In this document: piece after piece, positions 1 through 64,000 of the stretch | Numbering within the stretch: position 1 is the stretch's first letter | How the letters are laid out: each line of letters begins with the position of its first letter | Source: an uncultured Coriobacteriales bacterium | Lineage (GTDB): Bacteria; Actinomycetota; Coriobacteriia; Coriobacteriales; UMGS124 | DNA length: 64,000 nucleotides | NCBI GenBank assembly: GCA_902464015.1 | Contig: CABQHM010000010.1 | Coordinates: forward strand, 345-64,344 | Direction: 5' to 3' | Program-made: the position numbers and the translations under genes | The notes under the pieces: generated by a model | Database searches by the model: none | What the model saw: the letters and a program-made list of their open reading frames with translations, nothing else | What the model was told of the DNA's origin: nothing

Positions 1-65
1 CAAGTGCGGTTGCCCATCTCCTCCACTGGTCTCTGCCCTCTTCTCTGCTGTTTCTCGCAATTCTC

Positions 66-1397
66 ATGTTGCTCGCGCACGCACCCTATGCCGCGCCCAT
101 CGTAAGCCCCTCGTCTTTTTATCTTGCCTGCATGCTCGGAGCGCTCCTTGCGCTTGTGACGCTTCCCCTTCGCCCATGGGGCCGCCGCGCTCGACGCGCA
201 TGGTGCGTCGGCGGCGGCATCGCCCTTGAAGCAGCATGGATCATTCTGCTGGTTGCCGAACAGCAACGCTCTGCCGAGCTTTTGCTCCTTGGATCCGCCT
301 TGGCTGGATGTTCATCTGCATGTCTGTTGGTTCTTTGGCTTTGGGTAGATCAGGCAAGCGAGGCATCAGGCGAAATCACCAAACTTGCGGGAACATTCGG
401 CATTGCATATCTGGCGTACACCTTCTTTTCCGTTGTGCCCCATGCCGGCGTCGTGAGCTACTTGTTTCCTTTGCTCACTTGTCCTCCCCTGTTCGTGGAC
501 TTGGGAAACGAGCCGCCCAACGCCGCCGAAAACGCGGACTCTTCTCCTAAAGTGCATCCCCCCGTGCCTCAAGCCATCGCTGTAACGCTTACGCTCGCCT
601 TGTTCGGCGCTGGTTTCTCGGCATTGGGTTTCGGCGGACCTCAGGTCGAGCAGGGAGCCGGCTTACTCGCCATCCTGCTTTTCTGCTGCCTTCTTCCCTT
701 TGGCGGCAACATGCACATCCTTCGCATTGCGGCCGTGCCGCTCGTCGTGTTCTCACTGTGCTTGGGGGCTCTTGCGGGCGTTGGCAATGCTTTTGCTTTC
801 TTCCTCGCAGGATGCGGCTCGCTCGTTATCTGGCTCTTTCTCATGTTCCGTTTTGGATACGGCAGCCCGCGCAGCGCCACAATACGATCCATCACCCTGC
901 GCTTGCTGCATATCGGTGCCTCAGCCGGCGCCGGCATGATGCTGGGAAACGTCGTGTTTGGCGCACTGCCCATAGCCGATGCAAACCACGCCTTCGCTCT
1001 CGTGGCCGCTATCGTCGTGGCGGATTTCTTCTGGCAGGCAAGCAGTCTCACATGCAGGTCGGCCGACCGGAGCGCCGCCTATACCACCGTCGCCGGCGTC
1101 ATGGCACCAGCAGCGCATGTGGCCGACACGCAAGCCCCGACGGCCAGTGACGACTCCCAGCTTGGCTTCGACCCGGAGGAGACGGGGCGCGTCGCATCCA
1201 TGCTGGCCCTTTCTCCGCGCGAGGCCCAAGTTGCCGTGCTTCTTTGTCAGAGCAAGAGCGTGGGCTACATCTCCAAGAAGCTCGGTGTAGCCAACAGTAC
1301 CACCAAGACCCATGTGCGCCACGTCTACGAGAAGGCCAACGTCCACAGCCGCGACGAGCTTCAGCTCGAACTGGAGCGCCTACTTAAGGCGAAGTAA
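66..1397 (+). CDS. Membrane-anchored LuxR/GerE-family transcriptional regulator (polytopic N-terminal region plus C-terminal HTH)
   Basis: 443-aa ORF. The N-terminal two thirds are hydrophobic. The C-terminal LSPREAQVAVLLCQSKSVGYISKKLGVANSTTKTHVRHVYEKANVHSRDEL matches the GerE/LuxR HTH pattern. Confidence 0.8.
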   Translation: MLLAHAPYAAPIVSPSSFYLACMLGALLALVTLPLRPWGRRARRAWCVGGGIALEAAWIILLVAEQQRSAELLLLGSALAGCSSACLLVLWLWVDQASEASGEITKLAGTFGIAYLAYTFFSVVPHAGVVSYLFPLLTCPPLFVDLGNEPPNAAENADSSPKVHPPVPQAIAVTLTLALFGAGFSALGFGGPQVEQGAGLLAILLFCCLLPFGGNMHILRIAAVPLVVFSLCLGALAGVGNAFAFFLAGCGSLVIWLFLMFRFGYGSPRSATIRSITLRLLHIGASAGAGMMLGNVVFGALPIADANHAFALVAAIVVADFFWQASSLTCRSADRSAAYTTVAGVMAPAAHVADTQAPTASDDSQLGFDPEETGRVASMLALSPREAQVAVLLCQSKSVGYISKKLGVANSTTKTHVRHVYEKANVHSRDELQLELERLLKAK

Positions 1398-1631
1398 CGG
1401 GGGCCTCATTGCGACTGCTCGTACCCGCGCTTTTCGAGGGGACAGACAAGCGCCCTGCGCCTCATCTACAAAGAGCATCCCTTGCTCACAGGCGGCCTCA
1501 TGCAGATGCGAAATGGAAGGGTCAAACCCAAACGCTAGATTCTAGGCCGCATACGTCACCCACGCCAAACGTTAAAGCACAAATCGCAGCCATCGCCCGT
1601 CCCGAGCGCCATCAACCAGATCGATTACAAC

Positions 1632-1666
1632 AAAGCCCCGCAGGTTTCAATCTGCGGGGCTTTTGA
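1632..1666. terminator. Hairpin terminator between convergent genes (possibly bidirectional)
   Basis: gccccgcag-N8-ctgcggggc with an A-run on the left and tttt on the right, lying between the stop codons at 1397 (+) and 1753 (-). Confidence 0.7.
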
Positions 1667-1752
1667 CTTACCTATGAGCGGAATGACCCTCGCCATGCAT
1701 CGAGGAAAGCACCAGCACAATAACCGTGCGTCCCATCCAACAGCCACGCACG

Positions 1753-5631: not shown

Positions 5632-6510
5632 TTAATCCTCCACGGCGAAGCTGTTCTTGCCCGTGGCTTTCGCATCGTACATGGCGCGGTCGGCACGCTG
5701 GATAAGAGTCTGCGCGTCCAAGTTCTCGACCTTCTCCTGGTAGTACGCACCGACACTGAGGGTAACCCTCATGCCCCCGTCGACATCGATAGGCGGAATC
5801 GACCGCAGTCGGCACTCAAGCTCTGCCTCGTTTACATTTCGCAATGCGGCAACAAACTCGTCGCCGCCATAGCGTGCCAGAATGTCCTCGGCCGTAGGTG
5901 CCAGGGCCTCACGCAAGGCCTCGGCCACCCGAGAAAGCACTTTGTCGCCCGCAAGATGCCCCAGGCGATCGTTGATATCCTTGAAGTCATCGATGTCGAG
6001 CATCACCACAGAGAGCGGTGTGCCATCGAGAACCGAACGGTTGATGAGGATGTTCAGACGCTCATCAAGATAACGCCTGTTGGAAAGCCCTGTGAGGTCG
6101 TCGGTGTACATCTTGCGATTGAACGTGGTGACGCGATCGACAAACTCGTTGTTGCCGAACGCCGAGAGCAGCACATTATCGTTCGAGGCCATGACGACCT
6201 CCAACACGTATCGCCTGCCGTCAACCTCCACGGGTTGGGCCACCACATGATAGATGTCGTTACCGATGAACTCGAATTTTGAGTACCGTTCGCGCTCCAT
6301 GAAGCACCGCGCCGACAGGCAGTTCTCACAGCGGGCGGTCTTATTCCACACGTGGAAGCATCTGTCAGGCTGAGCACGAAGCTCGCCACCTTCAATGGTG
6401 TATGCCATCATGCTGATGGGGTCAACCAAGCGCACCACGTCGAACAGCTGAGACATCTCAGCCGCAAGCTCCTGGAAATGAGCTTTTTTATACTTCGGCA
6501 CTGCTTCCAT
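5632..6510 (-). CDS. Diguanylate cyclase (GGDEF domain) with Cys-rich N-terminal sensor region
   Basis: RYGGDEFVAAL active-site motif. The N-terminal CFHVWNKTARCENCLSARC carries four Cys. Start taken at MEAVPKYKK, preceded by a GGGGGA RBS. Confidence 0.85.
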   Translation of the reverse strand: MEAVPKYKKAHFQELAAEMSQLFDVVRLVDPISMMAYTIEGGELRAQPDRCFHVWNKTARCENCLSARCFMERERYSKFEFIGNDIYHVVAQPVEVDGRRYVLEVVMASNDNVLLSAFGNNEFVDRVTTFNRKMYTDDLTGLSNRRYLDERLNILINRSVLDGTPLSVVMLDIDDFKDINDRLGHLAGDKVLSRVAEALREALAPTAEDILARYGGDEFVAALRNVNEAELECRLRSIPPIDVDGGMRVTLSVGAYYQEKVENLDAQTLIQRADRAMYDAKATGKNSFAVED

Positions 6511-6638
6511 GAAACATCCCCCGCCCACGGTTTGACAAACGACGTGTATCTTAAACCCAATACCATGTGACAAAGAGGCATACCTGACCTTCCCATAGGG
6601 CTATCATTGCACCAACAAGAGGCGCAGGGAGGGTCAGC

Positions 6639-7424
6639 ATGCGTAGCGAAGACATCGCGGAACTGTCGGCAAGGGTGCTGCTCGCGTACTACAACAACGA
6701 TATCGAACCTTTCCTGGATGCATGCCACCCAAACGTGCTTTGGATTGGCCCCGGCGAAGGTCAAATTATTCAGACGCAGGAGACGCTCAGGAACACCTTC
6801 TATGCCGAGAAAAACAATCTAACGTTTGCGGTTCACGACCTCAGCGTCACCGCGCTTCCCACCGGAAGCCCCTCGGTCCTCGAGGTGGTCATGATGTTCC
6901 TTGTCGACACCTTCTGGCCAAATGGAGCAACCGGCCGCGTGAGCCAGCGAATCCACCTCAGCTGGGTAGGTTGTAAGGAGACGCCGCGCATTCTGCTGTG
7001 CCATATCTCAAACGCCATCGCATATGATGAGCGCGACACCATTTATCCCCTGCATTATGACGAGACCTTTGGGACAGAGATGCACTACGAAGGGGCTCCC
7101 GCCTCAGGCAGGGTCTGCCTGCGCGCAAAAGGGCACACGACGATGTATCTCGACCACGAGTGCATCATCTATGCAGAGAGTCACGACCGCCACACGCTGG
7201 TCCATACCTCCAGCGGTACCTACGAAGCCACCGAGTCGCTTTCGGCAATTGCCAAGCTCTACCAAGACTTGCTCGTGCGCTGCCATGCGAGTTACCTGGT
7301 AAACCCAGCTTTTATCTCAAGTATTTCGCGTTTTCAAGTTGAACTGCACGACGGAACAATCTTGCCAATCCCCGAGAAGAAATACACGACCATCCGAGCG
7401 CTTCTCGAGCAGAGGATGCACTAG
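6639..7424 (+). CDS. NTF2/SnoaL-like domain fused to a LytTR DNA-binding domain
   Basis: C-terminal HRHTLVHTSSGTYEATESLSAIAKLYQDLLVRCHASYLVNPAFISSI is the LytTR pattern. The N-terminal 120 aa are SnoaL/DUF4440-like. GGGAGGG RBS upstream. Confidence 0.8.
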   Translation: MRSEDIAELSARVLLAYYNNDIEPFLDACHPNVLWIGPGEGQIIQTQETLRNTFYAEKNNLTFAVHDLSVTALPTGSPSVLEVVMMFLVDTFWPNGATGRVSQRIHLSWVGCKETPRILLCHISNAIAYDERDTIYPLHYDETFGTEMHYEGAPASGRVCLRAKGHTTMYLDHECIIYAESHDRHTLVHTSSGTYEATESLSAIAKLYQDLLVRCHASYLVNPAFISSISRFQVELHDGTILPIPEKKYTTIRALLEQRMH

Positions 7425-7672: not shown

Positions 7673-8683
7673 CTATCCCGCCCTACGCACGGTCGCGACG
7701 CACTTCTCGGGGTCATCAGAGAAGCGAAGGTACGTAGAGAGCTCGGACGTATTGCGAGCCTCGACACCGTCAAAGAGCGTGCGAGCGCCCAGGCCGAAGC
7801 CGAGTGTCTCCGTAGTGCCGGCTGCCACAAGTACCTCGTAGAGGCTCTCGTGACCAGGCAGGGCCCAGCGTCCGGGGAGATACTCGCCGAAGCCGGCCAT
7901 AGCAAGGGCCTCCCGCATGGCTGCACGTACCTGCTCCGCCTCCTCGGCGCTAGGGGTGCAGGCCGTGGCTGATACAGGTACGGCAAGGTTCGCCGCAGGC
8001 CTGTAATCCCCCAGGCGCACCTCGCTCGCGCCATAGGCCAAGACCACCTCCACACTCGCACGTGCCGAGGCGGGCGTCTGCCCCGGAATGCCCACGAGCA
8101 GCTCAAACGCAAGGTCCGCCTCGCGATCGGCCAGGCGCACACCATGGCCACACTCTGGCAGGGCACCAAGCACCATACGCGTCACGTCCATAGCGCTCGG
8201 ATCGAGCGCACGACCCAGAGCTCGCCACTCCTTGAGCGAACTCGTGGCGTAATCCATCACAATGCGGCTCACATGCCCGATGCGAAAAGCGTCCACCGAG
8301 GCAGCCGCCACCATGCCGGGTCGGGCACGAAGCACGATTTCGGCACCCGGTGCGAGGTTGAAGTTCTGGCACACGTCACGCAGAAGCGCCCCCAGCACGT
8401 CATCGGCCACATGCGCTGCCATGCCGTCGGTAAGCGCCACGGCCTGCACCTGGCAGTCGGCATAATCGGGGGCGCTGGCAAGCACCTCGCGGGCGAGCGC
8501 CCCCACATAGGCATGGCCATCCACCATGCGTGGGTCAAGCATGCCCGGCACGCCGTTGCCACCCGCTTCCGGCGAAAAGGGCATGCGCAGCTCGACTACG
8601 ATGGGACGCAAGCCCGTGTCCCTCGGCATCGTTTCGCAATCCACAACCCGCAAATCACCTTTGCAACCGCCGTTCGCACCCAT
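7673..8683 (-). CDS. HemN/HemW-like protein lacking the radical-SAM CxxxCxxC motif (paralog of 38402-39475)
   Basis: Family-like blocks VGIPGQTPASARASVEVVLAYGASEVRL and GFGEYLPGRWALPGH (HemN_C-like). The cluster-binding position reads VELRMPFSPEAGGNG with no Cys. The start is ambiguous: 8683, 8629 or further upstream. Confidence 0.6.
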   Translation of the reverse strand: MGANGGCKGDLRVVDCETMPRDTGLRPIVVELRMPFSPEAGGNGVPGMLDPRMVDGHAYVGALAREVLASAPDYADCQVQAVALTDGMAAHVADDVLGALLRDVCQNFNLAPGAEIVLRARPGMVAAASVDAFRIGHVSRIVMDYATSSLKEWRALGRALDPSAMDVTRMVLGALPECGHGVRLADREADLAFELLVGIPGQTPASARASVEVVLAYGASEVRLGDYRPAANLAVPVSATACTPSAEEAEQVRAAMREALAMAGFGEYLPGRWALPGHESLYEVLVAAGTTETLGFGLGARTLFDGVEARNTSELSTYLRFSDDPEKCVATVRRAG

Positions 8684-10812: not shown

Positions 10813-11118
10813 GCAGGTACCTCCTCTTCAGGGCCGAGGCGACAAGCCCGCGGCCGTATGACAGACCGCAGGCGCCGCACCGCTCGCAGTGCGCCGCCTG
10901 CACTGGACTTAAGAGTAGGCAAACCCGTCTGCAAGGCCATACCAAATTGTTATGAGCTATCTACCAGGTAAAATGTTTTACAACTCAAACGCGCCACACA
11001 ACATCTGCCACCCGTATCGCAGGTTTTGGAGTATGCGATGGTCGCTCTATCGCGCTCTACCAAATTGTTTTGAGAGGCCTTGGTCGCCCACAGCCGACGC
11101 CATCTTCGTCTGCCGCAC

Positions 11119-12177: not shown

Positions 12178-12179
12178 CT

Positions 12180-14411: not shown

Positions 14412-14762
14412 AACTCCCACCGCGATGCCGACAAATTGTCCATCAGTATAGTATGCCGCGCGGCATCGCCCGGTGCGGTCAACGCATTGTAAAAGAATCA
14501 AGGCGCAAAAAGCGGGCACACGTTCTGGCCGGTAGCTACGAATTCTCTCGCTGAGCCATAGGCGTACCCACTCGATGCCGCCGATACCCAAGGTAGTTGC
14601 ATATGGCAACAACCTGTATGAGTAAAACTACATCCAAACGCAGGGCGCCTCCAGACATGCCATGCTACCCATAAGCACAGCCAATCCGTAGGCGCTCGCT
14701 CACATTACGCCAATTAAGGTATGCATGCAAATAGATCAAACCAACTGGTGCCAATCTGTACC

Positions 14763-29201: not shown

Positions 29202-29296
29202 GGCGTTTCCCCCGTCGACGTCTGGGCACGTTTCGCACCGCACATCAGCACGCGGGGATGATACCACCGAAGTGAGAGAATCGCAGGTGGGACGCA

Positions 29297-51611: not shown

Positions 51612-52156
51612 GCGGACAAGCACGAGCACGCCCGTACTGGCAAGCACGACAACCAACAAGCCCCGCGTGCCCGCCGGTTGAGCGGCAGGCGCGCGGGGCT
51701 TTCTGGCGGGGCTCGCGCGAGTTCTGGGCAAACTGTCAGTTCTATAAAGCGATATAACCACGCAGCTGGCTTATGCAGACCATAGGCATGGCGTGAGCCC
51801 GAGGCAAGAGGCGGGTGATTGGGCGAATGGACTCTGGGAACTGGGCGAATCAACCGCGTTCTCACGACGTTCGCCTTTGGCTTGTTGTCGGTCGCCTCGA
51901 GGCACAACCAAACTCCTCCAGATTGTGATGTGCCACGCGGATATACCACAAAACCGCAGTCCAGAGCACCGCTGCTGCGCCGTGCGAGAACGCACTCACT
52001 TGTCTGCGGGCTTTCGCTCGAAATGGAGGGCTAGCTTTGCGATTCATGCAAGCCAGCTCTTGAGCGCCGCAAAAACCGGGGGCTTTTCGGCGACGGCGCC
52101 CGCGCTACAATGAGCGTGTTGGATGTACAGCAACAGCATGCCGGGCATGAGGATGC

Positions 52157-53863: not shown

Positions 53864-54040
53864 GCAATCTACCAGCGCTTTTAATAACCTCACTGAATTT
53901 CAGTGAAGCGGTTTGCCCCCATCCGCACCACTATGGACACCATGGGAAGGGCCCAGGGAGGGCCTTTCGCCGGCTGGGCATGCGCGACCGATACCGAGCA
54001 TACCCGGCTCGCATCCACCAAGGGAGAGGATGGGACACAT

Positions 54041-56320
54041 ATGAAGCAAGACATCTCGCGCAGGGGCTTCTTCAAGGCCGCCGGCACCGCCGCAGCCGCA
54101 GCCGGCGCACTCAGCGTCACCGGCGCAGCGCTGGCCGAGCCTGCCACGCCCGCCGCAGAGGCCACTGCGCCCGCAGAGGCTGCAGCCCAGGACAAGACCG
54201 CCGTCTATCAGACGCTCGCCCAGCTCAACCCCGACGACACGAGCGACTGGCGCTCCAACTCCATCGAGGACTTCACCAAGACGACGCTCTTCTCGCCCTG
54301 GCACCTCGGCAAGCTCGAGCTCAGCCACCGCATGGTGAAGTCGGCCGCCGGCTCGCTCTACCTGCCCGAAGTCACCGACGAGCGCATCATCGACGAGTAT
54401 GTCGAGTTCATCAAGGGCGGCTGCGACTTCGTGTGGGTCGAGGACTACGCGAGCCTCATGCCCCACTACCCGGCTTCCTACAAGGTGCGCGACGCGAGCA
54501 ACGCCATCCTCGACCAGGTGGCTGCCGCCGTTCACGAGGCGGGCGGCATGTGCGGCTATCAGCTGAGCCTCATGGGCGCCTCCTTCAGCGGCTTCGACGC
54601 CACCACGGCACCCGAGTTCGCCTGCGCCGAGGCCGACGACCTCACGCTCGACGAGGTCAAACAGGTGCAGCAGGACTTCATCGACGTGGCCGTCATGCTC
54701 AAGGATGCTGGTTTCGACGCCGTTGAGCTTAACGCCGCCGGCAACAACATCGGCCAGGCGTTCCTGTCGCGCAACCGCAACCACCGCGAGGACGAGTACG
54801 GCCCGCAGAGCTTTGAGAACCGCGCCCGCTTCGTGTGCGAGATCATCCAGGGCATCAAGAGCGCCTGCGGCGAGGACTTCCCCGTGCAGATCCTCATCAA
54901 CGGCATTGAGGCCAACGACGTGAGCCTGGGCCAGGACGAGGGCTTCACGACCGTCGAGGAGAACGTCGAGCTGTGCAAGCAGTTCGAGGCGGCCGGTGCC
55001 GACTCGCTGCACGTGCGCATCGGGCCTTACGGCTATCACCCCTGCGAGTTCGCCGGCGACCTGTACTTCTCCGGCTACGGCATCAACGGCAACACCCGCT
55101 ACGCCACGCAATTCGACTTCGACCGTCACTGGGAGGGCCTGCTCGATGGCTCGCACTCCGGCTGCGGCCTCATGCTCGATGTTGCCGCAAAGATCAAGGC
55201 AGCCGTGAGCATTCCCGTGGGATCCGTCACCTACATGGATCCGGCCCATGCCCCGGACTTCTTCGAGAAGGCCCTGCAGGACGGTAAGGTCGACTTCTAC
55301 AACATGACCCGCCCGCTCTACGCCGACCCCGACTACATCAACAAACTGCGCGAAGGCAAGGTCGACGAGATCCGCCCGTGCAACCGTTGCCTGCACTGCC
55401 ACTTCGACTTCGACGAGCAGGGCAACTTCTACGAGCACTGCCGCGTCAACGCCACGCGCATGCGCGCCTTCACGCCCGCCATGCCCGATGGCCCCGCCCT
55501 GCCCGCGCTCGACAGCGACCCCAAGAACGTCATGGTCGTGGGCGGCGGCGCGGCCGGCATGGAGGCCGCACGTGTCGCGGCCCTGCGCGGGCACAGCGTC
55601 ACGCTCTACGAGAAGCAGGGCTACCTGGGCGGCAAGCTGCCCTTCGCCGCTGCGGTCAAGGGCCAGCACGAGAACATCGCCGATCTCAACTCCTACCTGC
55701 AGCGCCAGCAGGAGGTTTGCGGCGTAACCGTCGTGACCGGCCAGGAGGTCGACGCCGACTTCGTGCGCGCCCAGGCCCCCGATGTGCTGATTGAAGCAAC
55801 CGGCGGCGTTGTCGTGCCCACCGGCCTTGCCGCAAGCGGCTCGACCAACGTGGTGCCCATCGAGGATATCCTTACTGCTGAGATTGGCAACGAGGTCACC
55901 ATCGTGGGCTACGGTGCCCCGGCCGTGGACGCCGCGTTCTACCTCATCGCCCAGGGCAAGCACGTCACCATCGTCATGGACCAGCCCTCCGCCGTGCTTG
56001 ACAAGGGTCAGTCGGCCCATGTCAAGGAGGTCGTACTCCCGATGCTCTACGTCAAGGGCACTCGTGTGTGGGCCAACGCGACCGTGACCAACGTGGGCGA
56101 GGGTGAGATCACCATCAACGGCGACACTGGCTGCGACATCACCATCGCCTGCGACACCGTGATTGAGGCCTGCGAGCTTGCGGCCAACACCACGCTCGCC
56201 GACGCGCTGGGCGCCGAGATGACGGTCGTCACCGTGGGCGACGCCCTTGTCGACCCCGCCAAGCCCCACAACATCGCCGAGGCCATCGCCACCGGCAACC
56301 TGGCCGCCCGCGCAATCTAA
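54041..56320 (+). CDS. Tat-signal Old-Yellow-Enzyme / 2,4-dienoyl-CoA-reductase-like flavoenzyme (FMN TIM barrel plus 4Fe-4S plus FAD/NAD-type domain)
   Basis: MKQDISRRGFFKAAGTAAAAAGALSVTGAALA. OYE-like LSHRMVKSAAGS. Cys cluster CNRCLHCHFDFDEQGNFYEHC. Rossmann VMVVGGGAAGMEAARVAALRGHSVTLYEK. GGGAGAGGA RBS. Confidence 0.9.
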   Translation: MKQDISRRGFFKAAGTAAAAAGALSVTGAALAEPATPAAEATAPAEAAAQDKTAVYQTLAQLNPDDTSDWRSNSIEDFTKTTLFSPWHLGKLELSHRMVKSAAGSLYLPEVTDERIIDEYVEFIKGGCDFVWVEDYASLMPHYPASYKVRDASNAILDQVAAAVHEAGGMCGYQLSLMGASFSGFDATTAPEFACAEADDLTLDEVKQVQQDFIDVAVMLKDAGFDAVELNAAGNNIGQAFLSRNRNHREDEYGPQSFENRARFVCEIIQGIKSACGEDFPVQILINGIEANDVSLGQDEGFTTVEENVELCKQFEAAGADSLHVRIGPYGYHPCEFAGDLYFSGYGINGNTRYATQFDFDRHWEGLLDGSHSGCGLMLDVAAKIKAAVSIPVGSVTYMDPAHAPDFFEKALQDGKVDFYNMTRPLYADPDYINKLREGKVDEIRPCNRCLHCHFDFDEQGNFYEHCRVNATRMRAFTPAMPDGPALPALDSDPKNVMVVGGGAAGMEAARVAALRGHSVTLYEKQGYLGGKLPFAAAVKGQHENIADLNSYLQRQQEVCGVTVVTGQEVDADFVRAQAPDVLIEATGGVVVPTGLAASGSTNVVPIEDILTAEIGNEVTIVGYGAPAVDAAFYLIAQGKHVTIVMDQPSAVLDKGQSAHVKEVVLPMLYVKGTRVWANATVTNVGEGEITINGDTGCDITIACDTVIEACELAANTTLADALGAEMTVVTVGDALVDPAKPHNIAEAIATGNLAARAI

Positions 56321-56420
56321 CGCTCGCCGCCTAGACAGGCGAGCACGACAACCAACAATCCCCGCGCGTCCGTCGTTCAATCGGCGGGCGCGCGGGGGTT
56401 TACGTTTCGCATCTCCGCGC

Positions 56421-56511
56421 AATCTTGCAAACCTGTCCTGCAAGATTTCTTGAATCTTGCAAAGCAGGACTGCAAGATTTCGAGAATCTTGCCAAATAGC
56501 TTTGCAAGATT
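56421..56511. repeat. Three tandem 27-bp hairpin/palindrome units at an exact 32-bp period
   Basis: aatcttgca-N9-tgcaagatt at 56421-56447 and 56453-56479, with a third, imperfect unit aatcttgcc-N9-tgcaagatt at 56485-56511. They lie in a convergent intergenic region. Confidence 0.8.
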
Positions 56512-56656
56512 TGCGTCACGCTCAGGAGCAGAGCGTCGCTTTTCTCTCATAAAACAATCGTGGAATCCCGTCGCCCCCAGCAACGAAAAACGGCCGGCCC
56601 CAGCGTCATGCTGAAGCCGGCTGTTGGACAAACCAATTTCCGCTATCTAGCAGGGC

Positions 56657-58333
56657 TTACTCGCCCGTTGCGGCAATGCGACCGGCGCGGCGGGCAAACG
56701 TCGCCGAGCGACCGGCAGCAAGGCCGGGAATCTGGTCGGGATAGGTGTGAGCGAAGAAGCAACCCGAGTCATTGCCGCAGACGTACAGGCCCTCGATGGG
56801 CTCGCCGTCGGCGTTGAGGGCGTGCATGGTCTCGTCAATCTTGATGCCGTCCATGGTGCAGAGCAGGCGGCCTGCGTTACGCACACCAAAGAACGGGGCT
56901 GTGTCCACGGGCGACAGACGGAACGCCTCCTTGCCGAAGTCGGGATCCTCGCCGGCGGCAGCGTTGGCATTGTTGCGCTCCACGGTGGCCGCAAACGTGT
57001 CGGCCGGGATGCCGAGCTTCTCGGCGAGCTCTTCCACCGTGTCAGCCTGCTGGATGAAGCCGGCCTGCTTCATACCCTCGAGCATGCCCATACAGGCATC
57101 CATATCGATGGCGGAAACAGGCGCGCCGTTCACGAACGGGAACATGCGCGAGCAGCCCTGGGTCTTGAACTGCATGATGTAGTCCTGGAAGTTGGAGTCC
57201 CAGATGGTGGCATAGGTGTGGCCGGGCTGATCGATGGACGCGTGGAGCACGAAGTCGTACGGTGCGCTCTCGTTGCAGAAGCGCTCGCCCTTGAGGTTCA
57301 CCTTAAGCCAAGGCTGAGAGGCCATCCATACCATGCCGTTAACCATCTCGCCGCCGGCAAGACCATCGGGAGGCAACGGACCGCGATCGAACAACATGGA
57401 AGTATGAACATCGTCGAATGCGGCTCCCACCCAGAGGCAAGCTTTGATGCCATCGCCCTCCGAACCAGCAATACCGGAAATGTATGAACACACCAGTTTA
57501 GACTCAGGCTGAAGCGCAGAAAGCATTCCATCGTTGAGAGCATAGCCGCCGGTGCAAATGCACACGCCCTTAACAGCGTTGATGCGCACGTAGCCGTCGG
57601 TGCCCTGGGCAATGACGCCCGTCACGCGGCCGGACTCGTCCTGCTCAAGCTTGACCATGGGACAACTGTAGCGAAACTCAACGCCATTGTCGGCAGCATA
57701 TGATTCAAGAACTTCTCCTGCATCAGCATCCTGAGTGGTGTGGCCGTCCTTCACAGCAGCATGACCAGTTGCCCAGTGGCGGTACTCCATCTGGTCGGCA
57801 TACTCGTCGAGGTCATGGTCGGAGCAGTACACAAACTCGCGGCCGGCCTTCTCGCACAGGTCGCCGTACCACTCAATCGTCTCGGCCGACTCGTCTGCCC
57901 ATAGGCGGAGGAGCTTGGGATTGACGTTGGAGGCGGCGTACATGGTCATCTCGCGGCAGATGTCGAGCGCCTTGATGTCGGTGTTGTCAGCAAGCTGGTA
58001 CTTGGAGCCGATGGCGCCAAGGGTACCGCGGATACCCGGGCCCACCTCGTTCTTCTCGATGACGAGAACCTTCGCGCCGTTCTCGGCGGCCGAGCAGGCA
58101 GCGAAGAGGCCCGAAGTACCCGCGCCAACAACAAGAACGTCGCAGTCGAGCGTCTCGGCGATGTCGCTTTCAGCGACATCGGGCGCGGCGCCGAGCCATG
58201 CGGGAGCGTCGGCGACCTCGGCCGCAGGGGCCTGGTCGGCAAGCGCAAGAGCAGGCGCGCAGGCAAGGGCGCCAGCAGCGGAGGCCGTGGCGATGAAGCC
58301 GCGGCGAGAGACGCTCGAAGACGAAACAGTCAT
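56657..58333 (-). CDS. Tat-signal FAD-dependent reductase (FAD_binding_2 family)
   Basis: MTVSSSSVSRRGFIATASAAGALACAPALALA. VLVVGAGTSGLFAACSAAENGAKV. C-terminal GLYVCGNDSG. Confidence 0.9.
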   Translation of the reverse strand: MTVSSSSVSRRGFIATASAAGALACAPALALADQAPAAEVADAPAWLGAAPDVAESDIAETLDCDVLVVGAGTSGLFAACSAAENGAKVLVIEKNEVGPGIRGTLGAIGSKYQLADNTDIKALDICREMTMYAASNVNPKLLRLWADESAETIEWYGDLCEKAGREFVYCSDHDLDEYADQMEYRHWATGHAAVKDGHTTQDADAGEVLESYAADNGVEFRYSCPMVKLEQDESGRVTGVIAQGTDGYVRINAVKGVCICTGGYALNDGMLSALQPESKLVCSYISGIAGSEGDGIKACLWVGAAFDDVHTSMLFDRGPLPPDGLAGGEMVNGMVWMASQPWLKVNLKGERFCNESAPYDFVLHASIDQPGHTYATIWDSNFQDYIMQFKTQGCSRMFPFVNGAPVSAIDMDACMGMLEGMKQAGFIQQADTVEELAEKLGIPADTFAATVERNNANAAAGEDPDFGKEAFRLSPVDTAPFFGVRNAGRLLCTMDGIKIDETMHALNADGEPIEGLYVCGNDSGCFFAHTYPDQIPGLAAGRSATFARRAGRIAATGE

Positions 58334-58512
58334 GGTTGCTTCCCTTCTCATGGGTTCCGGGCGGCAAACGACGAAGCACATATGAGACGCAACGTCGCAC
58401 AGCCACCCGTTTGACATCTCGAACCATAGCGCCGACGTTTTCGTCACACCTCACCAACAGTTCACGAAAAACCAGGTATTTGCCGTCGTAACCCTTCTCA
58501 CCCCCTCTTCAT

Positions 58513-58561
58513 GATGACGCACTGACCAGGCTGAATGACGCGTTACAATGCTTGCGTCATC
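58513..58561. promoter_or_regulatory. Perfect 9-bp inverted repeat (GATGACGCA / TGCGTCATC) bracketing a TACAAT hexamer upstream of the LuxR gene
   Basis: gatgacgca at 58513-58521, tgcgtcatc at 58553-58561, a third half-site aatgacgcg at 58534-58542, and tacaat at 58544-58549. The LuxR start is at 58606. Confidence 0.4.
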
Positions 58562-58605
58562 TTTAGGGGGCTAGGCTTGGTCAAGGGGAAGGCAACGGTG
58601 GGTTC

Positions 58606-60047
58606 ATGAGCAATCGCAGCGAGGCACAAGGAAAGCCCGCTCCCTCTCCTGCTGGCAACGCCTTGCCAAAGGAGCCTGCCACAGCATTTGCCGCATTCGG
58701 TGCCTACGTGCTGAGCAACTGGCTACTCACGAGCAAGGTCTTCCCCATCGGCACCGATGTAGCCCCGCTGTGTCGCGACATCGCGACGCTCGTGGAAGCA
58801 GCGGGCTTTCTCGTGATCGCGCTTGTCGCCTCGAGGGTGCCTCGCCTTCTGGGAGCACGCCCGTTCCTTATCGCGCCCCTTGCGCTCTCGTTAGTCGGCG
58901 GCATCAGCCTCTGGGCCTTCGTCCCCACCTCCCCACTCGCCGCAACGTTGGCTCTCTGTTTGCTTTTGCTCTGCGCCGTCTTCGTTATGCTTTCTGCCGG
59001 CTGTTGTTTGGCACGCTTAACTCGTCCGCAAATGGCAAAATGCGTCTTGCTGGGCCTCTTCGCCTCATATCTTCTGCGCTTCCCACTCAGCGTCCTGAGT
59101 CCACAAGCAGCGCTCGTCCTGTTCATCACCCTGCAAATCCTTGCAGTATTCGTGGGCCGCACCGACATGGGCAAGGCACTTGAAATCATCCAATCGGGGC
59201 AGGCGCCCGACGAGCTCACGCTCACAAACCCCTTCTCGTTCCTGCCCCGCTCACACAGGCTCTTCGTATGCCTGGCCCTTTTCCAGACAGCCTACGGAGC
59301 AGCACTTTCCTTCGGCGAGGTTAACAATGCCCCGCTCGCCACATGGGCCGGCATCGTCCCTTTGCTGTTCTTCTTGGCAATTTGGGCGATAAACAGCCGA
59401 CCGCTCCTACTTGACTCGTGCTTCAATCTGGCGCTTCTACTTCTAATGGCGGGCTTTTTATTCGCCCCCATTTCCCAGCAGGCCGTACCTTCGCTGACCT
59501 CAAATCTAATCGAAGCGGGAAAGACTTGTTTTTGGCTCGTCTTTTGGCCGGCGCTGGCGGCGCTTTCCGCCCGCAACCGCGCAGGCACGCTGCCCCTTTT
59601 CGCCTGGAGCGGCTTTCTGCTCTGCGTGGGTGTCACGGGAGGCGCCGAACTGGGCCGGTTGTGCTACGCGGCCATGGCGGGCAGCCTTATTGCGAGCACT
59701 GCCGTGACGGGAGCCGTCGTGCTCTGCCTTGCGGCGTTTGCCCTGTTCGGCATGAGGGGCTCAGCTACGACACGACGGTAGAGGCGCTCACGGCAAGCCC
59801 CGAGGTCGTCGAGCATGAGGCCACCCCCGACCTCGACACCACCGTTGCCCGCCTTATCGACACGACCGGCCTCACTGCGCGCGAGGCCGAGATCTTCGCC
59901 CTGCTCGCCCAGGGCCGCAACGGTGCCTATATCCAACGTCAGCTGGGCGTGAGCTACAACACCGTGAAGACCCACGTGGCCCACATCTACACCAAGCTCG
60001 GCGTCCACTCCCACCAGGAACTGATCGACCTGGTAGAGGTGGCATAG
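58606..60047 (+). pseudogene. Membrane-anchored LuxR/GerE regulator interrupted by a 1-nt frameshift
   Basis: The membrane domain (frame 1) stops at 59781. The HTH (LTAREAEIFALLAQGRNGAYIQRQLGVSYNTVKTHVAHIYTKLGVHSHQEL) continues in another frame to 60047. Adding one G to the G4 run at 59756-59759 restores ...FGMRGLSYDTTVEALTA... Confidence 0.7.
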
Positions 60048-60488
60048 AGGAACAGGCGCAGGCCTTTCCTCGCGGGCGAATGGCAGCGCTCCATCTTGCC
60101 CTAAGACGAGCGCGTGGAATCGAGGGGTCTGCGTTGGTGCAATCGGCGATTCGAGGATTGGGGCAGCAGCGGGCCGGTTGATTGTCACGCTGCCCCTGAT
60201 GATTCCCGGAACCCGAGTGAATTTCAGAGATCGTCCAACAAGGTCCTCGCAGGGGCATTTCGAACGCCCGTACCAAGGATTGCGCCAGCCTTTCGGGACA
60301 CACTCGAGAGCACGCCATACATATTTGATGCCAGCATTCAGAATGACACTTGACGCGGGTGTTCTCGAAAACTGGCTGAGACAAGGTGCGGCAGGAATTC
60401 CGCGAAACTTGCCTCTCTTTCACTCCGCCTATAGTTCCGCGCACATGAGCATGGCTTTCTACTCGCCTCCACACGCGGCGGGCACATG

Positions 60489-60524
60489 AAAAGGCGGTGC
60501 CAGGCAAACCTGCCCAGCACCGCC
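60489..60524 (-). terminator. Rho-independent terminator after the truncated flavoreductase
   Basis: On the minus strand: ggcggtgc-N16-gcaccgcc followed by tttt. Confidence 0.65.
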
Positions 60525-60551
60525 AAAGAAGTCGAGCGATCAATCTCGTGG

Positions 60552-61760
60552 CTACTCAGCGAGAGCCTTGCCGAGCCTATAGCCAGCATTAATGCAGTTC
60601 ATGCCCAGATTGTGGCCGCAAACGGCAAAGTTGTAGCAGTTGCCGTACGAGTCGCCAACCATGATGCCGATGTTGTAGAGGCCCTCGATGGGATTGTCGT
60701 TGGCGTCGCAAACCTGCCATTTCTCGTTGGTGTTCAAGCCACCGGTGACACACAGGAAGTTGGCGGGGCTCATGCTGAGCTTGCAGCCGTAGAAGGGGCC
60801 TTCCTTGATGGGTGCCATGAGAGAGGCGTCCTTGTGGAAGTCGGTGTCGCAGCCGGCCTCGCACAGCTCGTTGTAATGGTCGATAGAGGCGAGCGCCGCC
60901 TCAGCGTCGAGGTCGTCGAGCTGGGCGATGACCTCCTCGAGCATGTCTCCCTTGACAAAGGTGCCGCTCTCGACGTTGGAGTCCCACTGAGCCAGGTAAG
61001 CCTCGCACGACAGGGGGTCCTTGCCCTCGCCGGCGACGATGGTGGCGCCGAAGGTCTCCCACTGGGGGAACCAGTGGGCATAGGCGGTGTCCCAGATGCC
61101 GTAGCGGGTCATGTCGGGCTGCATCATCATGGCATATGTTCCATACGAGAAGATGACGTCCTCGTTAGAGTAGCGCTGGCCGTTCTTGTTGAGCAGCAGA
61201 CCGGAGAAGTCGGCGATGGACTGACGGTAAGGCATGGGTCCAACAGCATCGATCATGGGGGCGTTGGGGATGCTCTTCTGCCACGCGGCGCCGACCCAAA
61301 GGCCCATCTTCTGGCCGTCGCCGCCACCAAGGCCACCGAACTGGAAGGCCGCGTCATAGTCTATCTCGTTGTACTGAAGCAGCGGGGCGACCCAGTCGCA
61401 GTACTTGGCCATCATGTCCTGGTTGGCAGAAAAGTCGCCCGTAGCCATGACGACGGCCTTGCGGCCGACGTACTTGACGTAGTTGCCATCCGGATCGGTG
61501 GCAACTACCGCGCTCACACGGCCTGTATTGCCGTCGTCGCGGACAAGGTAACGGGCGATGGTTTTGTAATGGATGGTGCCTCCCTGCTCGAGAATCTTCG
61601 ACTCCAGGGCGTACATGACGTAGTTCTCGCCCAAACGAGCCCCCGATTCGACGCCGTCGCAAGTCTCAACCCAGTTGTGAGAGCCGGGCTCGGCGGTGAA
61701 GGTGCCGTCAGTGTCGGTGTAACCGATCTCCATGGTTGTGGTGTAGCCCTGGCCTTCCAT
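60552..61760 (-). pseudogene. 5'-truncated FAD_binding_2 flavoreductase (lacks the Tat signal and FAD dinucleotide fold)
   Basis: The 402-aa ORF aligns with the C-terminal two thirds of the paralogs (VVMATGDFSANQDMMAKY, GQKMGLWVGAAW, DTDFHKD, GPFYG, GLYNIGIMVGD). No RR signal or GxGxxG is present. Similarity ends near 61770-61790. Confidence 0.7.
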
Positions 61761-61783
61761 GAAGTCGATCGTCCTCGCGCGAC

Positions 61784-62017
61784 GTGACCACCGAGTACTG
61801 CAGGCGAGTGAAAAGATGCTACGGCCTCACGAACCGCGAGAGCGACGTGCTCGAGCTTATCCTTCGCGGTCAGTTCGTCCCCCAGATGGCCGAGGCGCTC
61901 TGCGTCAGTGAAAACACCGTGCGGTCCCACTGCAAGACTCTCTACAGGAAGCTTGGGGTCCACTCTCGCCAGCAGCTCTTTGATTTGGTCGAGTCTGCCC
62001 AGCAATGGGGCGCCTGA
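61784..62017 (+). pseudogene. Stand-alone C-terminal fragment of a LuxR/GerE regulator (HTH only)
   Basis: 77 aa: ...YGLTNRESDVLELILRGQFVPQMAEALCVSENTVRSHCKTLYRKLGVHSRQQLFDL. It lacks the polytopic N-terminal region found in all seven other paralogs. Confidence 0.65.
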
Positions 62018-62034
62018 TTCGATCCCCGGCCACC

Positions 62035-63489
62035 TCACCCCTGCACGAGGACGTCGAGCTCCTCCTTGCTGTGGACGCCGAGTTTCTTGTATATATGCTG
62101 CATGTGGGCTTTGACCGTGCCGGGCGCGATGCCCAGCTTGTTACCCAGGGCGCGGGGCGTGTCGCCCCGCGCAACAAGCAGCAGTATCTCCCTCTGACGC
62201 CCCGACAGGCCGTGCTCGCGGGCGAGCGTGTCCACGGTCAGCTCGAGCCGCGCGTCCTCCGCCAGACTCGTCCCCGCACGCGTGAGGACGATGCGCCAGC
62301 TCGAGTTGAGCGTGGGCTCCGACACGATGATGAACGTCGCGAACAGGATGCAGATGATGACCGCGCCCACGACGACGAGCGACGGCAGGGCGTTGAAGAG
62401 GAGCGTCCCGGCCCCCAGGAACGCGATGTGGACAACGTTGAGCAGGCCGAACAGCCATGCGGCGCTGATGCCGTAGCGCCGCGACAGGTTGCACAGTACC
62501 ACCGAGATGTATAGGGACACCGACGTGTAGCTCGCCCGCACGAAGACGGTGACGAGGCCCTCGTTGCCGTCCCGGACGAGGAGCAGGGCAAGGAAGCCGG
62601 CGATTGCCGCGGGCAGGATGGTGCGGTAGACCAGGGCGAAGTCGAAGAACCTCGATGCGAACAGGATGGACGCGCAGACGACAAGCGCCGGGAGGACCAT
62701 GCCCAGGCGCATGAAGAGGTCGTCCTGGTAATGGAGCAGCCACGTGCCGCACCCGTAGGCGAACGCGTACAGGGCCACCAGGCTCATCGGCTTCCAGGGG
62801 AACGATGCCGCGCCGTCCCCCGCGCGCGTCACAAGACCGAGGGACGCGCAGCGCCTTTGCGCGGCGTCGAGCATGGCCATGCCGAGCAGCGGGAAAACGA
62901 GCGTCGCCGCGACCAGGTAACCGCCGGAATATCCGGAAAGCGCCGCGATCGCCACCTCGCGGGCGATCCAGGAGCTTGCACAGCAAAACGCCACCTCGAC
63001 CGGGTTGAGGGCGGCACAGACCTCCCACCAGCATAGGATTGCAAGCGAAGAACCGGCGCCCGCCAAGGCAAGGCCGAGCAGGCGCCCGAGCTGGGCTGTG
63101 TCAGACGGCAAAATCGGCATGTCTCCCGGCCCGAGCGGGGCGGCGGGCAGCAGTCCGCCGAAGGCGGCGAGTGCGTTGCCTGCATACATGAGGGCGGCGG
63201 CGCCTGCGAGAACGCCGCGGCGGGCCCCGAGCGGCCCGGCCCCCCGCGCGAGCGCGACGACAAGGAGGAACACGGGCACGGAGCCCAGGTCGACGTAGAG
63301 CGTGACCCGCCCGAAGGCCGTGGAGGGATCGCTTGACGAGGCGGCCTGCACCATGGCCTGCAGCGCCGCGACCCATGCCCGCAAGACGCCCGGGCCCAGA
63401 AAAGCAAGCGACACCGCGGGCACCCGCTCCGCCAAAAGTCCCCTCAACGTCCCAAACACGGATGTCCCCCTCCCTCGTCTGCGTCCCAT
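62035..63489 (-). CDS. Membrane-anchored LuxR/GerE-family regulator
   Basis: 484 aa, polytopic. C-terminal LSGRQREILLLVARGDTPRALGNKLGIAPGTVKAHMQHIYKKLGVHSKEEL. Confidence 0.8.
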   Translation of the reverse strand: MGRRRGRGTSVFGTLRGLLAERVPAVSLAFLGPGVLRAWVAALQAMVQAASSSDPSTAFGRVTLYVDLGSVPVFLLVVALARGAGPLGARRGVLAGAAALMYAGNALAAFGGLLPAAPLGPGDMPILPSDTAQLGRLLGLALAGAGSSLAILCWWEVCAALNPVEVAFCCASSWIAREVAIAALSGYSGGYLVAATLVFPLLGMAMLDAAQRRCASLGLVTRAGDGAASFPWKPMSLVALYAFAYGCGTWLLHYQDDLFMRLGMVLPALVVCASILFASRFFDFALVYRTILPAAIAGFLALLLVRDGNEGLVTVFVRASYTSVSLYISVVLCNLSRRYGISAAWLFGLLNVVHIAFLGAGTLLFNALPSLVVVGAVIICILFATFIIVSEPTLNSSWRIVLTRAGTSLAEDARLELTVDTLAREHGLSGRQREILLLVARGDTPRALGNKLGIAPGTVKAHMQHIYKKLGVHSKEELDVLVQG

Positions 63490-63672
63490 ACCCCCGGGTT
63501 ACGGCGTCGGGTTACGCGTTTACGACGGCGTAACCCGACGCCGGGATTGCGCCGGCCCCCTCGCAAATCATACCTTCGAAACGGCGCGGGCGACACGGGA
63601 ACCCCTCGGCGGGGGCGCGAATCTTCCAAGGCGGCCGCGCGCCTCAAAACAACGATCAGATGGGAGAAGGAC

Positions 63673-64000
63673 ATGGCTGAACTTACGCGTCGCAGTTTCC
63701 TGGCAGGCAGTGGCATGGCAGTCGCCGGGGCAGTGGCCGCAACCGGCATGGCCGCCGCGGGCGGGGCCGACCGCGCCTATGCCGACGAGCAAGCCGCGGA
63801 GGGCCGCGTGTACCAGGTCATCACCGACGAGCTCAACCCGCAGGACTACAACTACCGCCAGAACTCGGGAGACCTGTCCCACGTGCTGTCGCCGTGGAAG
63901 CTGGGGAACATGGAGTTCTCCAACCGCATCGTGAAGTCGGCGGCCGGGTCCAACTACGAGAACGGCGGCTGGGACAAGTTCGTGGAGTACTACCGCCGCC
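63673..64000 (+). CDS. Tat-signal OYE / 2,4-dienoyl-CoA-reductase-like flavoenzyme (5' part, runs off the window)
   Basis: MAELTRRSFLAGSGMAVAGAVAATGMAAAGGA. LSPWKLGNMEFSNRIVKSAAGS parallels FSPWHLGKLELSHRMVKSAAGS of 54041-56320. GGGAGAAGG RBS. Confidence 0.8.
   Translation, partial: MAELTRRSFLAGSGMAVAGAVAATGMAAAGGADRAYADEQAAEGRVYQVITDELNPQDYNYRQNSGDLSHVLSPWKLGNMEFSNRIVKSAAGSNYENGGWDKFVEYYRR

Follow-up and report, generated by a model that had tools for sequence, protein, structure and literature searches.

A dense stretch of candidate exported reductases beside membrane-bound LuxR-type regulators in an uncultured gut Coriobacteriia lineage

The DNA analysed here, a stretch of 64,000 nucleotides from an uncultured Coriobacteriales bacterium (contig CABQHM010000010.1 of assembly GCA_902464015.1, positions 345 to 64,344; hereafter the window), is best read as chromosomal DNA that carries a dense stretch of its lineage's exported-reductase arsenal, in which most modules are placed under an adjacent transmembrane LuxR-type (TM-LuxR) regulator with the fold of the major facilitator superfamily (MFS). 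We put the probability of this reading at roughly 0.78. Profile searches recovered eight GerE regulators or regulator remnants, eight FAD_binding_2 genes (seven intact and one truncated), and two OYE/FadH-type genes; the reductase and regulator genes, together with small accessory genes, occupy ~48% of the window bases. A battery of exported reductases beside membrane sensor-regulators had been proposed in a preliminary description of the sequence, and this proposal agrees both with the tests made on the window and with published experiments in Eggerthella lenta. Because the design has already been described in that organism, the locus is a new example of it rather than a new kind of system.

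The locus is neither a chance arrangement nor an assembly artefact, since its gene order is shared with several independently assembled metagenome contigs. Exact copies of window proteins are present on human-gut metagenome contigs from ENA, NCBI, and Logan, one of which, 71,057 nt long, is evidently the source of the window, and several of the related contigs derive from Hadza and Nepali samples. By sequence affinity, the host is an uncultured, Eggerthellaceae-like member of the Coriobacteriia and not E. lenta: the product of its DUF1846 gene is 98% identical in amino acid sequence to that of 'uncultured Coriobacteriaceae bacterium UMGS1780', the nearest species-representative genome, followed by a Slackia metagenome-assembled genome (74%) and then by Eggerthellaceae and Adlercreutzia genomes.

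Membrane regulators and their sensor domain

The GerE helix-turn-helix (HTH) domain (Pfam PF00196) was found at the C-terminus of all eight regulators and remnants (E = 3e-10 to 2e-16). In the full-length regulators, it is preceded by 9-15 hydrophobic segments (Kyte-Doolittle, 19 residues), against 0-4 in soluble proteins of the window, so that the polytopic N-terminus joined to a GerE HTH that had been described for eight open reading frames (ORFs) is borne out, as are the membrane helices, of which 12 long ones appear in each of the two structure models discussed below. Four of these regulators are encoded on the minus strand, namely R2 (551 amino acids (aa); 18546-20201; E = 3.1e-13), R3 (566 aa, or 534 aa from an alternative start at 29201; 27597-29297; 6.9e-15; ~11 hydrophobic segments), R4 (562 aa; 34430-36118; 6.3e-15; at least 12 segments), and R8 (484 aa; 62035-63489; 5.5e-13; ~9 segments). 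On the plus strand lie R1 (443 aa; 66-1397; 2.9e-10 at residues 381-432; ~9 segments), whose upstream partner falls outside both the window and the contig, and R5 (up to 568 aa; 52157-53863; 1.6e-16), along with two damaged members: R6 (58606-60047), a TM-LuxR pseudogene in two overlapping frames with its GerE domain in the 59418-60047 frame, and R7 (61772-62017; 1.7e-16), an orphan GerE HTH that has no membrane domain upstream and is a TM-LuxR remnant. The last of these had been reported as a fragment at 61784-62017; the GerE domain is real, but it is encoded on the plus strand at 61772-62017, the minus-strand frame giving no match.

Regulator pairs align by BLAST over the HTH and linker only (28-50% identity over 54-138 residues), the exception being R2 and R8 (24% over 255 residues). 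Such divergence fits that published for E. lenta, the TM-LuxR membrane domains of which are <20% identical to one another (Dong et al., 2022, PMC9734109). In that organism, the LuxR activators DadR, HcdR, and CadR, each with 12 transmembrane helices, have been characterised by deletion and complementation: the adjacent dehydroxylase depends on them for induction by its substrate, and this requires their membrane domain as well as their HTH; E. lenta DSM 2243 encodes 83 TM-LuxRs, 50 of them beside flavin enzymes, and >10 per genome are found in several genera of Coriobacteriia (PMC9734109).

The fold of the sensor half was predicted for two paralogs, R2 and R5, the membrane domains of which have no BLAST-detectable similarity to each other. 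AlphaFold2 models of reasonable confidence, built from 28 sequences for R2 and 25 sequences for R5, reached a predicted local distance difference test score (pLDDT) of 77.5 and a predicted template-modelling score (pTM) of 0.68 in the first case, and 76.5 and 0.67 in the second. Each contains 12 long helices in two bundles of six (6+6) with a disordered central loop, and a further disordered linker separates the membrane domain from the terminal HTH. When the models were compared with the PDB by Foldseek, the top 50 matches were all MFS transporters, for R2 and for R5 alike (E = 3e-5 to 6e-4, probability 1.00, target TM-score 0.42-0.65), the targets including VMAT2, MelB, SLC15A4, LmrP, NorA, OxlT, FLVCR1, GLUT3, and a ferroportin homologue. 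The two families also align end to end in hhalign. Lysine and arginine are distributed over the predicted loops in accordance with the positive-inside rule (inside:outside = 18:1 in R5 and 11:1 in R2); given this bias, both termini, and hence the HTH, are predicted to be cytoplasmic. At the level of profiles, one of 25 R5-family homologs matches Pfam MFS_1 (PF07690) at 1.2e-5 and another is labelled 'CsgD family regulator/MFS family permease' by JGI; among the window proteins, there was no MFS_1 match.

Judging from these models, the sensor half of the TM-LuxRs may have the fold of an MFS transporter and be joined directly to the DNA-binding domain. In the literature searched, no earlier statement of an MFS fold for TM-LuxRs was found, which does not imply its absence elsewhere, and none of the words 'MFS', 'transporter', and 'AlphaFold' occurs in the text of Dong et al. 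(PMC9734109). Should the fold hold, it would hint at the site of the ligand pocket and at the engineering of such sensors, and the TM-LuxRs would represent a 'transceptor' made of a single polypeptide, which has diversified to dozens of ligand specificities in each genome.

Reductases and their export signals

The flavin adenine dinucleotide (FAD) enzymes listed in the preliminary description, including the truncated gene at 60552-61760, were all recovered by the FAD_binding_2 profile (PF00890; E = 6e-22 to 1e-50 in the eight). Three of those with a Tat-type (twin-arginine translocation) signal have FAD_binding_2 as their one named domain: F1 (608 aa; 8986-10812, minus strand; 6e-22; motif SRRSFL), F4 (653 aa; 36329-38290, plus strand; 2.5e-22; SRRAFL), and F6 (558 aa; 56657-58333, minus strand; 1.7e-39; SRRGFI). 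The same is true of F5 (565 aa; 42294-43991, plus strand; 1.3e-50), the motif of which (TRRSAI) is the weakest of the set. An FMN_bind domain (PF04205) is added at the C-terminus in F2 (671 aa; 16168-18183, minus strand; PF00890 1.8e-31, PF04205 1.9e-14; SRRNFL), precedes the FAD domain in F3 (627 aa; 20538-22421, plus strand; 1.6e-34 and 2.2e-12; NRRNFV), and is also present in F7 (730 aa; 29917-32109, minus strand; 1.4e-24 and 2.3e-4), which carries T-R-S-D-F-L-K in place of a twin-arginine motif. F8 (402 aa; 60552-61760, minus strand) is a pseudogene truncated at its 5' end that covers profile positions 141-405 only and has neither a Tat signal nor the GxGxxG motif. The FAD_binding_2 paralogs are 21-32% identical to each other, which, together with regulators that align over the HTH and linker, upholds the earlier characterisation of the paralogs as strongly diverged.

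The FMN_bind domains of F2, F3, and F7 each contain a flavinylation-type motif, D-x-x-S-G-A-T (DTVSGAT, DAMSGAT, and DAISGAT, respectively). The ApbE-type motif D-x-x-[ST]-G-A-[ST] is the covalent flavin mononucleotide (FMN) site of extracytosolic electron-entry domains such as that of UrdA. Among solved structures, the best matches of F1, F3, and F6 are the flavocytochrome c fumarate reductases of Shewanella and UrdA, followed by 3-ketosteroid dehydrogenases. The NCBIfam models that most often score best against the FAD enzymes, below threshold, are likewise those for the vinyl phenol reductase VprA (at best 194 bits, against a cut-off of 600) or for flavocytochrome c (TIGR01813, PRK06481; at best 164 bits, against a cut-off of 285). 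No window enzyme reaches any NCBIfam equivalog cut-off; assignment of substrates from sequence was rejected on that account, in keeping with the earlier view that substrates cannot be read from these genes.

The two OYE-type genes previously placed at 54041-56320 and from 63673 onward were verified by matches to Oxidored_FMN and Pyr_redox_2, and both can now be added to the enzymes with Tat signals. O1 (759 aa; 54041-56320, plus strand; Oxidored_FMN 5.8e-24, Pyr_redox_2 1.5e-13; SRRGFF) is an iron-sulfur flavoenzyme of the OYE/FadH type with the cluster motif C447-x2-C-x2-C-x13-C467. Its best PDB matches are the 2-naphthoyl-CoA reductase NCR (6qkg) and FadH (1ps9), and its sub-threshold NCBIfam matches are BaiCD, BilR-long, and the FadH/OYE enzyme of the mycofactocin system (247-257 bits, against cut-offs of 750-825). 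O2 (TRRSFL) is represented in the window by its 5' end (63673-64000, plus strand); these 109 residues give no Pfam match and share 46% identity with O1, and both Oxidored_FMN and Pyr_redox_2 are found in the complete protein of 753 aa that the source contig (L089) encodes. The O1 family is large, with 956 matches at E<1e-20. Its nearest 120 cluster representatives are 53-97% identical to O1 and include proteins of Denitrobacterium, Raoultibacter, and Arabiibacter; the twin-arginine motif is kept in 112 of the 120 and the cysteine motif in 119, most of the eight relatives that have no twin-arginine motif look like miscalled starts, and one relative (P0286) has a fused FMN_bind domain.

To our knowledge, the gut members of the OYE/FadH class known so far are cytoplasmic and linked to NAD(P)H. 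Since enzymes exported by the Tat route would find no NAD(P)H outside the cell, O1 and its relatives should need another electron donor, by which they would be fed through their FAD domain. In addition to the PF00890 and molybdopterin enzymes, the Tat-exported OYE/FadH enzymes may constitute a third class of reductases that act outside the cytoplasm under TM-LuxR control; no paper on such enzymes in Eggerthellaceae was found in the literature searched, which again does not imply absence elsewhere.

Export is suggested by the N-termini. Of the nine intact reductases, eight (O1 and O2 among them) carry [STN]-R-R-x-[FA]-[LIVF] within the first 15 residues. These proteins start at an ATG preceded by a Shine-Dalgarno sequence (GAGGAGG in F1 and F5), and the motif is followed by an alanine-rich hydrophobic stretch and then by an A-x-A site, usually with an acidic residue after it. 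By motif, hydrophobic region, and A-x-A site, the twin-arginine signal described for six of the seven intact FAD genes is confirmed. The seventh, F7, has the same layout, and its deviating arginine-serine variant, also noted previously, is T-R-S-D-F-L-K, fixed in all eight related strain contigs; it may be a natural single-arginine Tat signal. The single-arginine signal of F7 coexists with an extracytosolic-type flavinylation motif in the same protein. Reading the motifs as Tat signals by profile succeeded in part: F3 passes the Pfam TAT_signal cut-off, seven other signals score weakly, below threshold, against TAT_signal or the Rieske Tat-signal model, and F5 matches neither, the Pfam Tat models being too short to decide eight of the nine.

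Module wiring, accessory genes, and turnover

Reductases and regulators are combined in several orientations. R2 lies between F2, which follows it in tandem on the same strand, and F3, which is divergent from it and also adjoins a convergent LysR-type regulator (22574-23512, minus strand; HTH_1 9.7e-15). F7, a 162-aa acidic and probably helical protein (29297-29785, minus strand; no Pfam match; found in every strain contig), and R3 lie in a row on one strand with R3 last, the start of R3 overlapping the stop of the 162-aa ORF by 1 nucleotide (nt). R4 is divergent from F4, R5 stands in tandem upstream of O1, O1 and F6 are convergent, F6 is divergent from R6, F8 abuts R7, and R8 and O2 are divergent; F5 is paired divergently with a second LysR-type regulator (41090-41995, minus strand; LysR_substrate 9e-19, HTH_1 2.7e-8). 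Past the window end, the source contig carries the rest of O2, a FAD_binding_2 gene (590 aa), and a GerE gene (494 aa). The earlier statement that regulators lie beside flavoenzyme genes stands for seven of the eight, the neighbour of R1 being off the contig, but the notion that each reductase has a private sensor does not: only six of the ten (F4, F6, F7, F8, O1, and O2) have one, and two of those sensors are now dead.

Two reductases are followed directly by a HemN/HemW-like gene. H1 (7673-8620, minus strand), downstream of F1, gives sub-threshold NCBIfam matches to HutW, HemZ, and HemW; H2 (38402-39475, plus strand), downstream of F4, gives sub-threshold matches to HemW (5e-20) and to the STM4012 radical SAM family (3.8e-21). 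The two proteins are 26% identical, and the radical SAM cysteine motif CxxxCxxC is missing from both. In a full-library search, the motif was also missing in 24 of the 25 closest cluster representatives and present in 81 of the 100 at ranks 51-150. H homologs at 55% and 45% identity lie directly downstream of a gene of ~650-680 aa, which is a FAD_binding_2 gene in contig L102; the order of reductase and then H, which recurs in two more distant lineages, occurs in contigs L098 (5001-6242), L099, and L102 (2252-3514), a TM-LuxR standing upstream of the pair in L098, and is not shared by an H homolog at 35% identity. As a guess, the H proteins might be a dedicated maturation factor or chaperone for one clade of flavin reductases.

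Birth-and-death turnover, as had been proposed, is directly visible at the module borders in the form of frameshift, truncation, and block replacement between strains. R6 is one gene, the frames of which (58606-59781 and 59418-60047) are separated by a 1-nt deletion (one T) after 59760, as defined by DNA alignment to an intact 480-aa ortholog that is found in strain contigs L092, L093, and L095; the gene is independently disrupted in one strain. F8 has an intact 566-aa ortholog with an NRRSFV signal in strain contig L092. The sister strains are ~95.6% identical over window positions 51974-61774, and homology to them breaks at 61774, within F8. Because this break meets the start of the R7 HTH at 61772, a single rearrangement must have cost F8 its 5' part and introduced the remnant of a different regulator. 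In the sister strains, the TM-LuxR that belongs to F8 is itself in two pieces, a membrane part of 366 aa and an HTH of 77 aa (L092 2085-3897; L094 and L095 2208-2903), with a Transposase_20 remnant between or beside the pieces, so that inactivation of the F8 module has occurred independently in different strains. Three assemblies from different samples (ENA ERZ1034984, ENA ERZ27289137, and Logan SRR7658668) agree to the base in the frameshifted R6, the 402-aa F8, and the 77-aa orphan HTH, the Logan contig being 100% identical to the window across 9.8 kb. The two modules singled out earlier as decaying are thus indeed decaying, with R6 and F8 intact in the ~95.6% identical strains.

Identity to sister strains is otherwise mosaic, with 88%, 96.7%, 90.5%, and 96.4% in successive blocks. 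The LysR gene at 22574-23512 is truncated in strain contig L003, and, beyond 39489, the block of the window that contains CapR, deoxyribosyltransferase, LysR, and F5 is swapped in other strains for one of AAA_16, TM-LuxR, and FAD_binding_2. In UMGS1780 (L009 2765-4897), an insertion of ~2.1 kb with a 482-aa ATPase-like ORF lies between F7 and DUF1846, a space of ~220 nt in the window. The most strain-divergent block (88% identity, against 96-97% for its neighbours) is a 1143-aa surface protein with CAP and PASTA domains and eight Big_4 repeats (24061-27492, plus strand), and this divergence points to recombination or to diversifying selection.

A promoter or operator motif common to the regions upstream of the nine reductases was sought and rejected, since the recurrence of 9-mers (with at most one mismatch) peaked at six regions, equal to shuffled controls; the sequence TGAGCTGGRA is marginally enriched (15 matches against 8.6±3 expected). 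The pattern TCTACCWG-N1-4-AAWWT occurs at 10960-10974, 20420-20434, and 42149-42162, 104-162 nt upstream of the start codons of F1, F3, and F5, and always on the plus strand regardless of gene orientation. A related sequence, TGAGCTGGAA, is present at 18481 and 36161. As the pattern was defined after the sites were seen, its statistics mean little. Between the convergent O1 and F6, three tandem 32-nt units (56421-56516, unstranded) each contain the palindrome AATCTTGCAA-N7-YTGCAAGATT; six of the eight window matches to its half-site lie there, against 1.95 expected. A dimeric regulator could use these repeats as an array of operators, or they could act as a terminator or form a structured RNA; they may or may not belong to the system. 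A G+C-rich hairpin (56357-56400) precedes the repeats.

The window as a whole holds ~42 genes, as counted from a screen of G+C by codon position and an ORF listing, and its G+C content is 57-68% throughout. Besides the modules, it encodes an AcrB-type transporter, SufBD with an ABC ATPase, ArsR, the large Big_4/PASTA/CAP surface protein, DUF1846, an AraC regulator, a metal-type ABC importer, and a CobW GTPase. Two GGDEF diguanylate cyclases (5632-6573 and 13308-14612, both on the minus strand), one with ~6 membrane segments, are interspersed near F1, as is a soluble LytTR regulator (6639-7424, plus strand); F1 has no LuxR of its own. No Rfam match at the gathering threshold, no tRNA or tmRNA gene, and no integrase or conjugation gene was found in the window.

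Working model, rival readings, and known systems

The favoured model can be stated as follows. The FAD_binding_2 enzymes, and the OYE/FadH-type enzymes with their FMN, [4Fe-4S] cluster, and FAD, would be loaded with cofactor before export; those with a twin-arginine signal would then cross the cytoplasmic membrane in folded form and be set free by signal peptidase. At the outer face of the membrane, each enzyme probably reduces one small molecule of dietary, host, or drug origin with electrons drawn from the membrane electron-transport chain, FMN_bind being the likely entry point in F2, F3, and F7 and the enzymes that have no FMN_bind domain presumably taking electrons from a donor encoded elsewhere. 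Expression of most modules would be set by the adjacent one-component regulator, a 12-helix MFS-fold domain with cytoplasmic termini: the cognate compound probably binds the central cavity of the transporter-derived sensor and shifts its conformation, and the flexible C-terminal linker would relay the shift to the cytoplasmic GerE/LuxR HTH, which would activate the neighbouring promoter. We infer substrate-specific induction and a respiratory role for the window modules by analogy with published E. lenta homologs. In E. lenta, 64 reductase genes directly neighbour transmembrane regulators, the reductases are selectively induced by their cognate electron acceptor, and they support formate-dependent respiratory growth, while some genomes encode >30, and up to 103, flavin and molybdopterin reductases with signal peptides (Little et al., 2023/24, bioRxiv 10.1101/2022.12.26.521950).

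Several observations weigh against this model. F1 and F5 have no TM-LuxR, and R2 could serve either F2 or F3. The Tat cut-off is passed by F3 alone, the F5 motif is weak, and F7 has a single arginine. The fold matches of the sensor are moderate (TM-score 0.42-0.65) and were obtained with predicted models for which the alignments were shallow (25-28 sequences). The window holds no gene for a cytochrome or another electron donor; specifically, there is no Cgr1-like NapC/NirT multi-haem cytochrome, and no ORF has two or more CxxCH motifs. KstD-type dehydrogenases are among the PDB matches of F1, F3, and F6. Lastly, counterparts of H364, R401, and H503 (1d4c numbering) are absent in all eight FAD paralogs in a MAFFT alignment with the 1d4c segment, in which the H503 column is well aligned and the R401 and H364 columns fall in the poorly aligned capping region. 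With this catalytic histidine and arginine set not seen in any FAD enzyme and the flavocytochrome c cut-offs missed, the FAD enzymes are, on sequence evidence, members of the superfamily and not fumarate- or urocanate-type enzymes. As those residues and equivalog scores are missing, catalytic direction and respiratory role are assumed by analogy.

The same evidence bears on the proposal that the flavoenzymes are exported or membrane-facing catabolic or detoxifying oxidoreductases, some of them KstD-like dehydrogenases, that conserve no energy. It would account for the 3-ketosteroid dehydrogenases among the PDB and sub-threshold NCBIfam matches, for the absence of fumarate-reductase catalytic residues from every enzyme in the alignment, and for the lack of any electron-transport partner among the genes of the window. 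Extracytosolic respiratory reductases, however, have signal peptides and flavinylated FMN_bind domains as their hallmarks, family homologs in E. lenta support formate-dependent growth and ATP synthesis, and flavocytochrome c, UrdA, or VprA still come out as the best matches for each enzyme; we regard the proposal as rather improbable. Slightly less so, though still unlikely, is the idea that the 12-helix LuxR domain is an active MFS importer, with regulation through cytoplasmic sensing or transport flux. Both modelled paralogs do have the complete 6+6 MFS fold and one homolog scores against MFS_1, but the window proteins give no such match and import would not be needed, since the regulated enzymes are exported; the requirement of the DadR membrane domain for induction (PMC9734109) is compatible with an importer and a sensor alike.

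With regard to the origin of the cluster, a horizontally acquired genomic island would fit the mosaic identity to sister strains (88-97%), with its sharp breakpoints at module borders, and the insertion-sequence or transposase remnants beside a module in related strains. Against an island stand the even G+C content (0.57-0.68), the failure to find tRNA, integrase, or conjugation genes, the interspersed housekeeping-type genes (Suf, DUF1846, ABC transporters), and the age of the paralogs, which must be old because they are only 21-32% identical; we consider an island quite improbable and diversification and decay of paralogs in situ the better account. That the decaying modules, or the whole arrangement, are an artefact of metagenome assembly or sequencing is scarcely credible: although coverage of the source metagenome contig is ~8x, the lesions are base-identical in three assemblies from different samples, and the gene order is common to many contigs. 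The model of an exported-reductase arsenal under adjacent TM-LuxR control is accordingly retained. A joint reading that adds to it an MFS-HTH transceptor, Tat-exported OYE enzymes as a third class, and a HemW-like maturation factor is more tentative and less likely than not.

The points most worth passing on are the sensor with its predicted MFS fold, the exported OYE class, and the HemW-like accessory gene. Drugs (e.g., digoxin) are inactivated by reductases of Eggerthellaceae, which also transform dopamine, polyphenols, bile acids, and immune metabolites. Any module still uncharacterised may therefore carry out a new transformation of relevance to the host, and the adjacent regulator offers a practical handle for finding the substrate of each enzyme. 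An uncultured gut lineage, which occurs in Hadza and Nepali samples among others, thus carries its own set of about a dozen modules. From strain to strain, this set varies through frameshifts, deletions, and the exchange of modules, and variation of this kind makes the metabolism of drugs and diet person-specific.

Among known systems, the cgr locus of E. lenta was the format invoked in the preliminary description. The cgr1-cgr2 genes and the cac3 LuxR gene include a FAD_binding_2 enzyme with a predicted Tat signal that has no canonical fumarate-reductase residues, and the homologs nearest to Cgr2 are <28% identical to it (Koppel et al., 2018, PMC5953540). Compared by description, the window shares with it a Tat-type FAD_binding_2 enzyme and a LuxR-type regulator in one cluster, but the analogy is incomplete because the window encodes no Cgr1-like multi-haem cytochrome. 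The 'respiratory reductase arsenal' of Little et al. is similar in that each genome carries tens of PF00890 reductases with signal peptides beside transmembrane regulators; its members are narrowly specific, are selectively induced, and have active sites divergent from the fumarate and urocanate type, and none of their substrates is transferable to the window paralogs. O1 and O2 fall outside the definition of that survey, which counted PF00890 and molybdopterin enzymes only. The family of LuxR proteins with 10-12 transmembrane helices described by Dong et al. corresponds to the window regulators in its C-terminal PF00196 HTH behind ~12 membrane helices, in its membrane domains of <20-25% identity combined with conserved HTHs, and in its genes, which adjoin a reductase and occur in many copies per Coriobacteriia genome, as they do in the lineage of the window. 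Its characterised members control molybdopterin catechol dehydroxylases, whereas the partners in the window are flavin and OYE-type enzymes; pairing with flavin enzymes was counted in that study (50 in E. lenta) rather than tested genetically, and the organism differs from the host of the window.

On the side of the enzymes, the flavocytochrome c of Shewanella (1d4c, 1qjd) and UrdA (6t85) are the best structure matches to the FAD and capping domains, and UrdA, like F2, F3, and F7, has an FMN_bind domain with a flavinylation motif; the window enzymes differ from flavocytochrome c in having no haem domain and no counterparts, in the eight paralogs aligned, to its H364, R401, and H503. The class that comprises FadH, NCR, BaiCD, and the long form of bilirubin reductase shares with O1 the Oxidored_FMN TIM barrel, the four-cysteine motif, and Pyr_redox_2, and O1, O2, and most of the 120 nearest relatives are set apart from that class by their Tat signals. 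By description, finally, the regulators resemble MFS transceptors such as UhpC of Escherichia coli and Snf3/Rgt2 of yeast, membrane ligand sensors with a transporter fold that control transcription. UhpC signals via UhpB to the LuxR/FixJ-type regulator UhpA, the HTH of which is of the same class as that of the GerE regulators; in the TM-LuxRs of the window, by comparison, the putative sensor and the HTH are joined in one polypeptide that operates with neither kinase nor phosphorelay.

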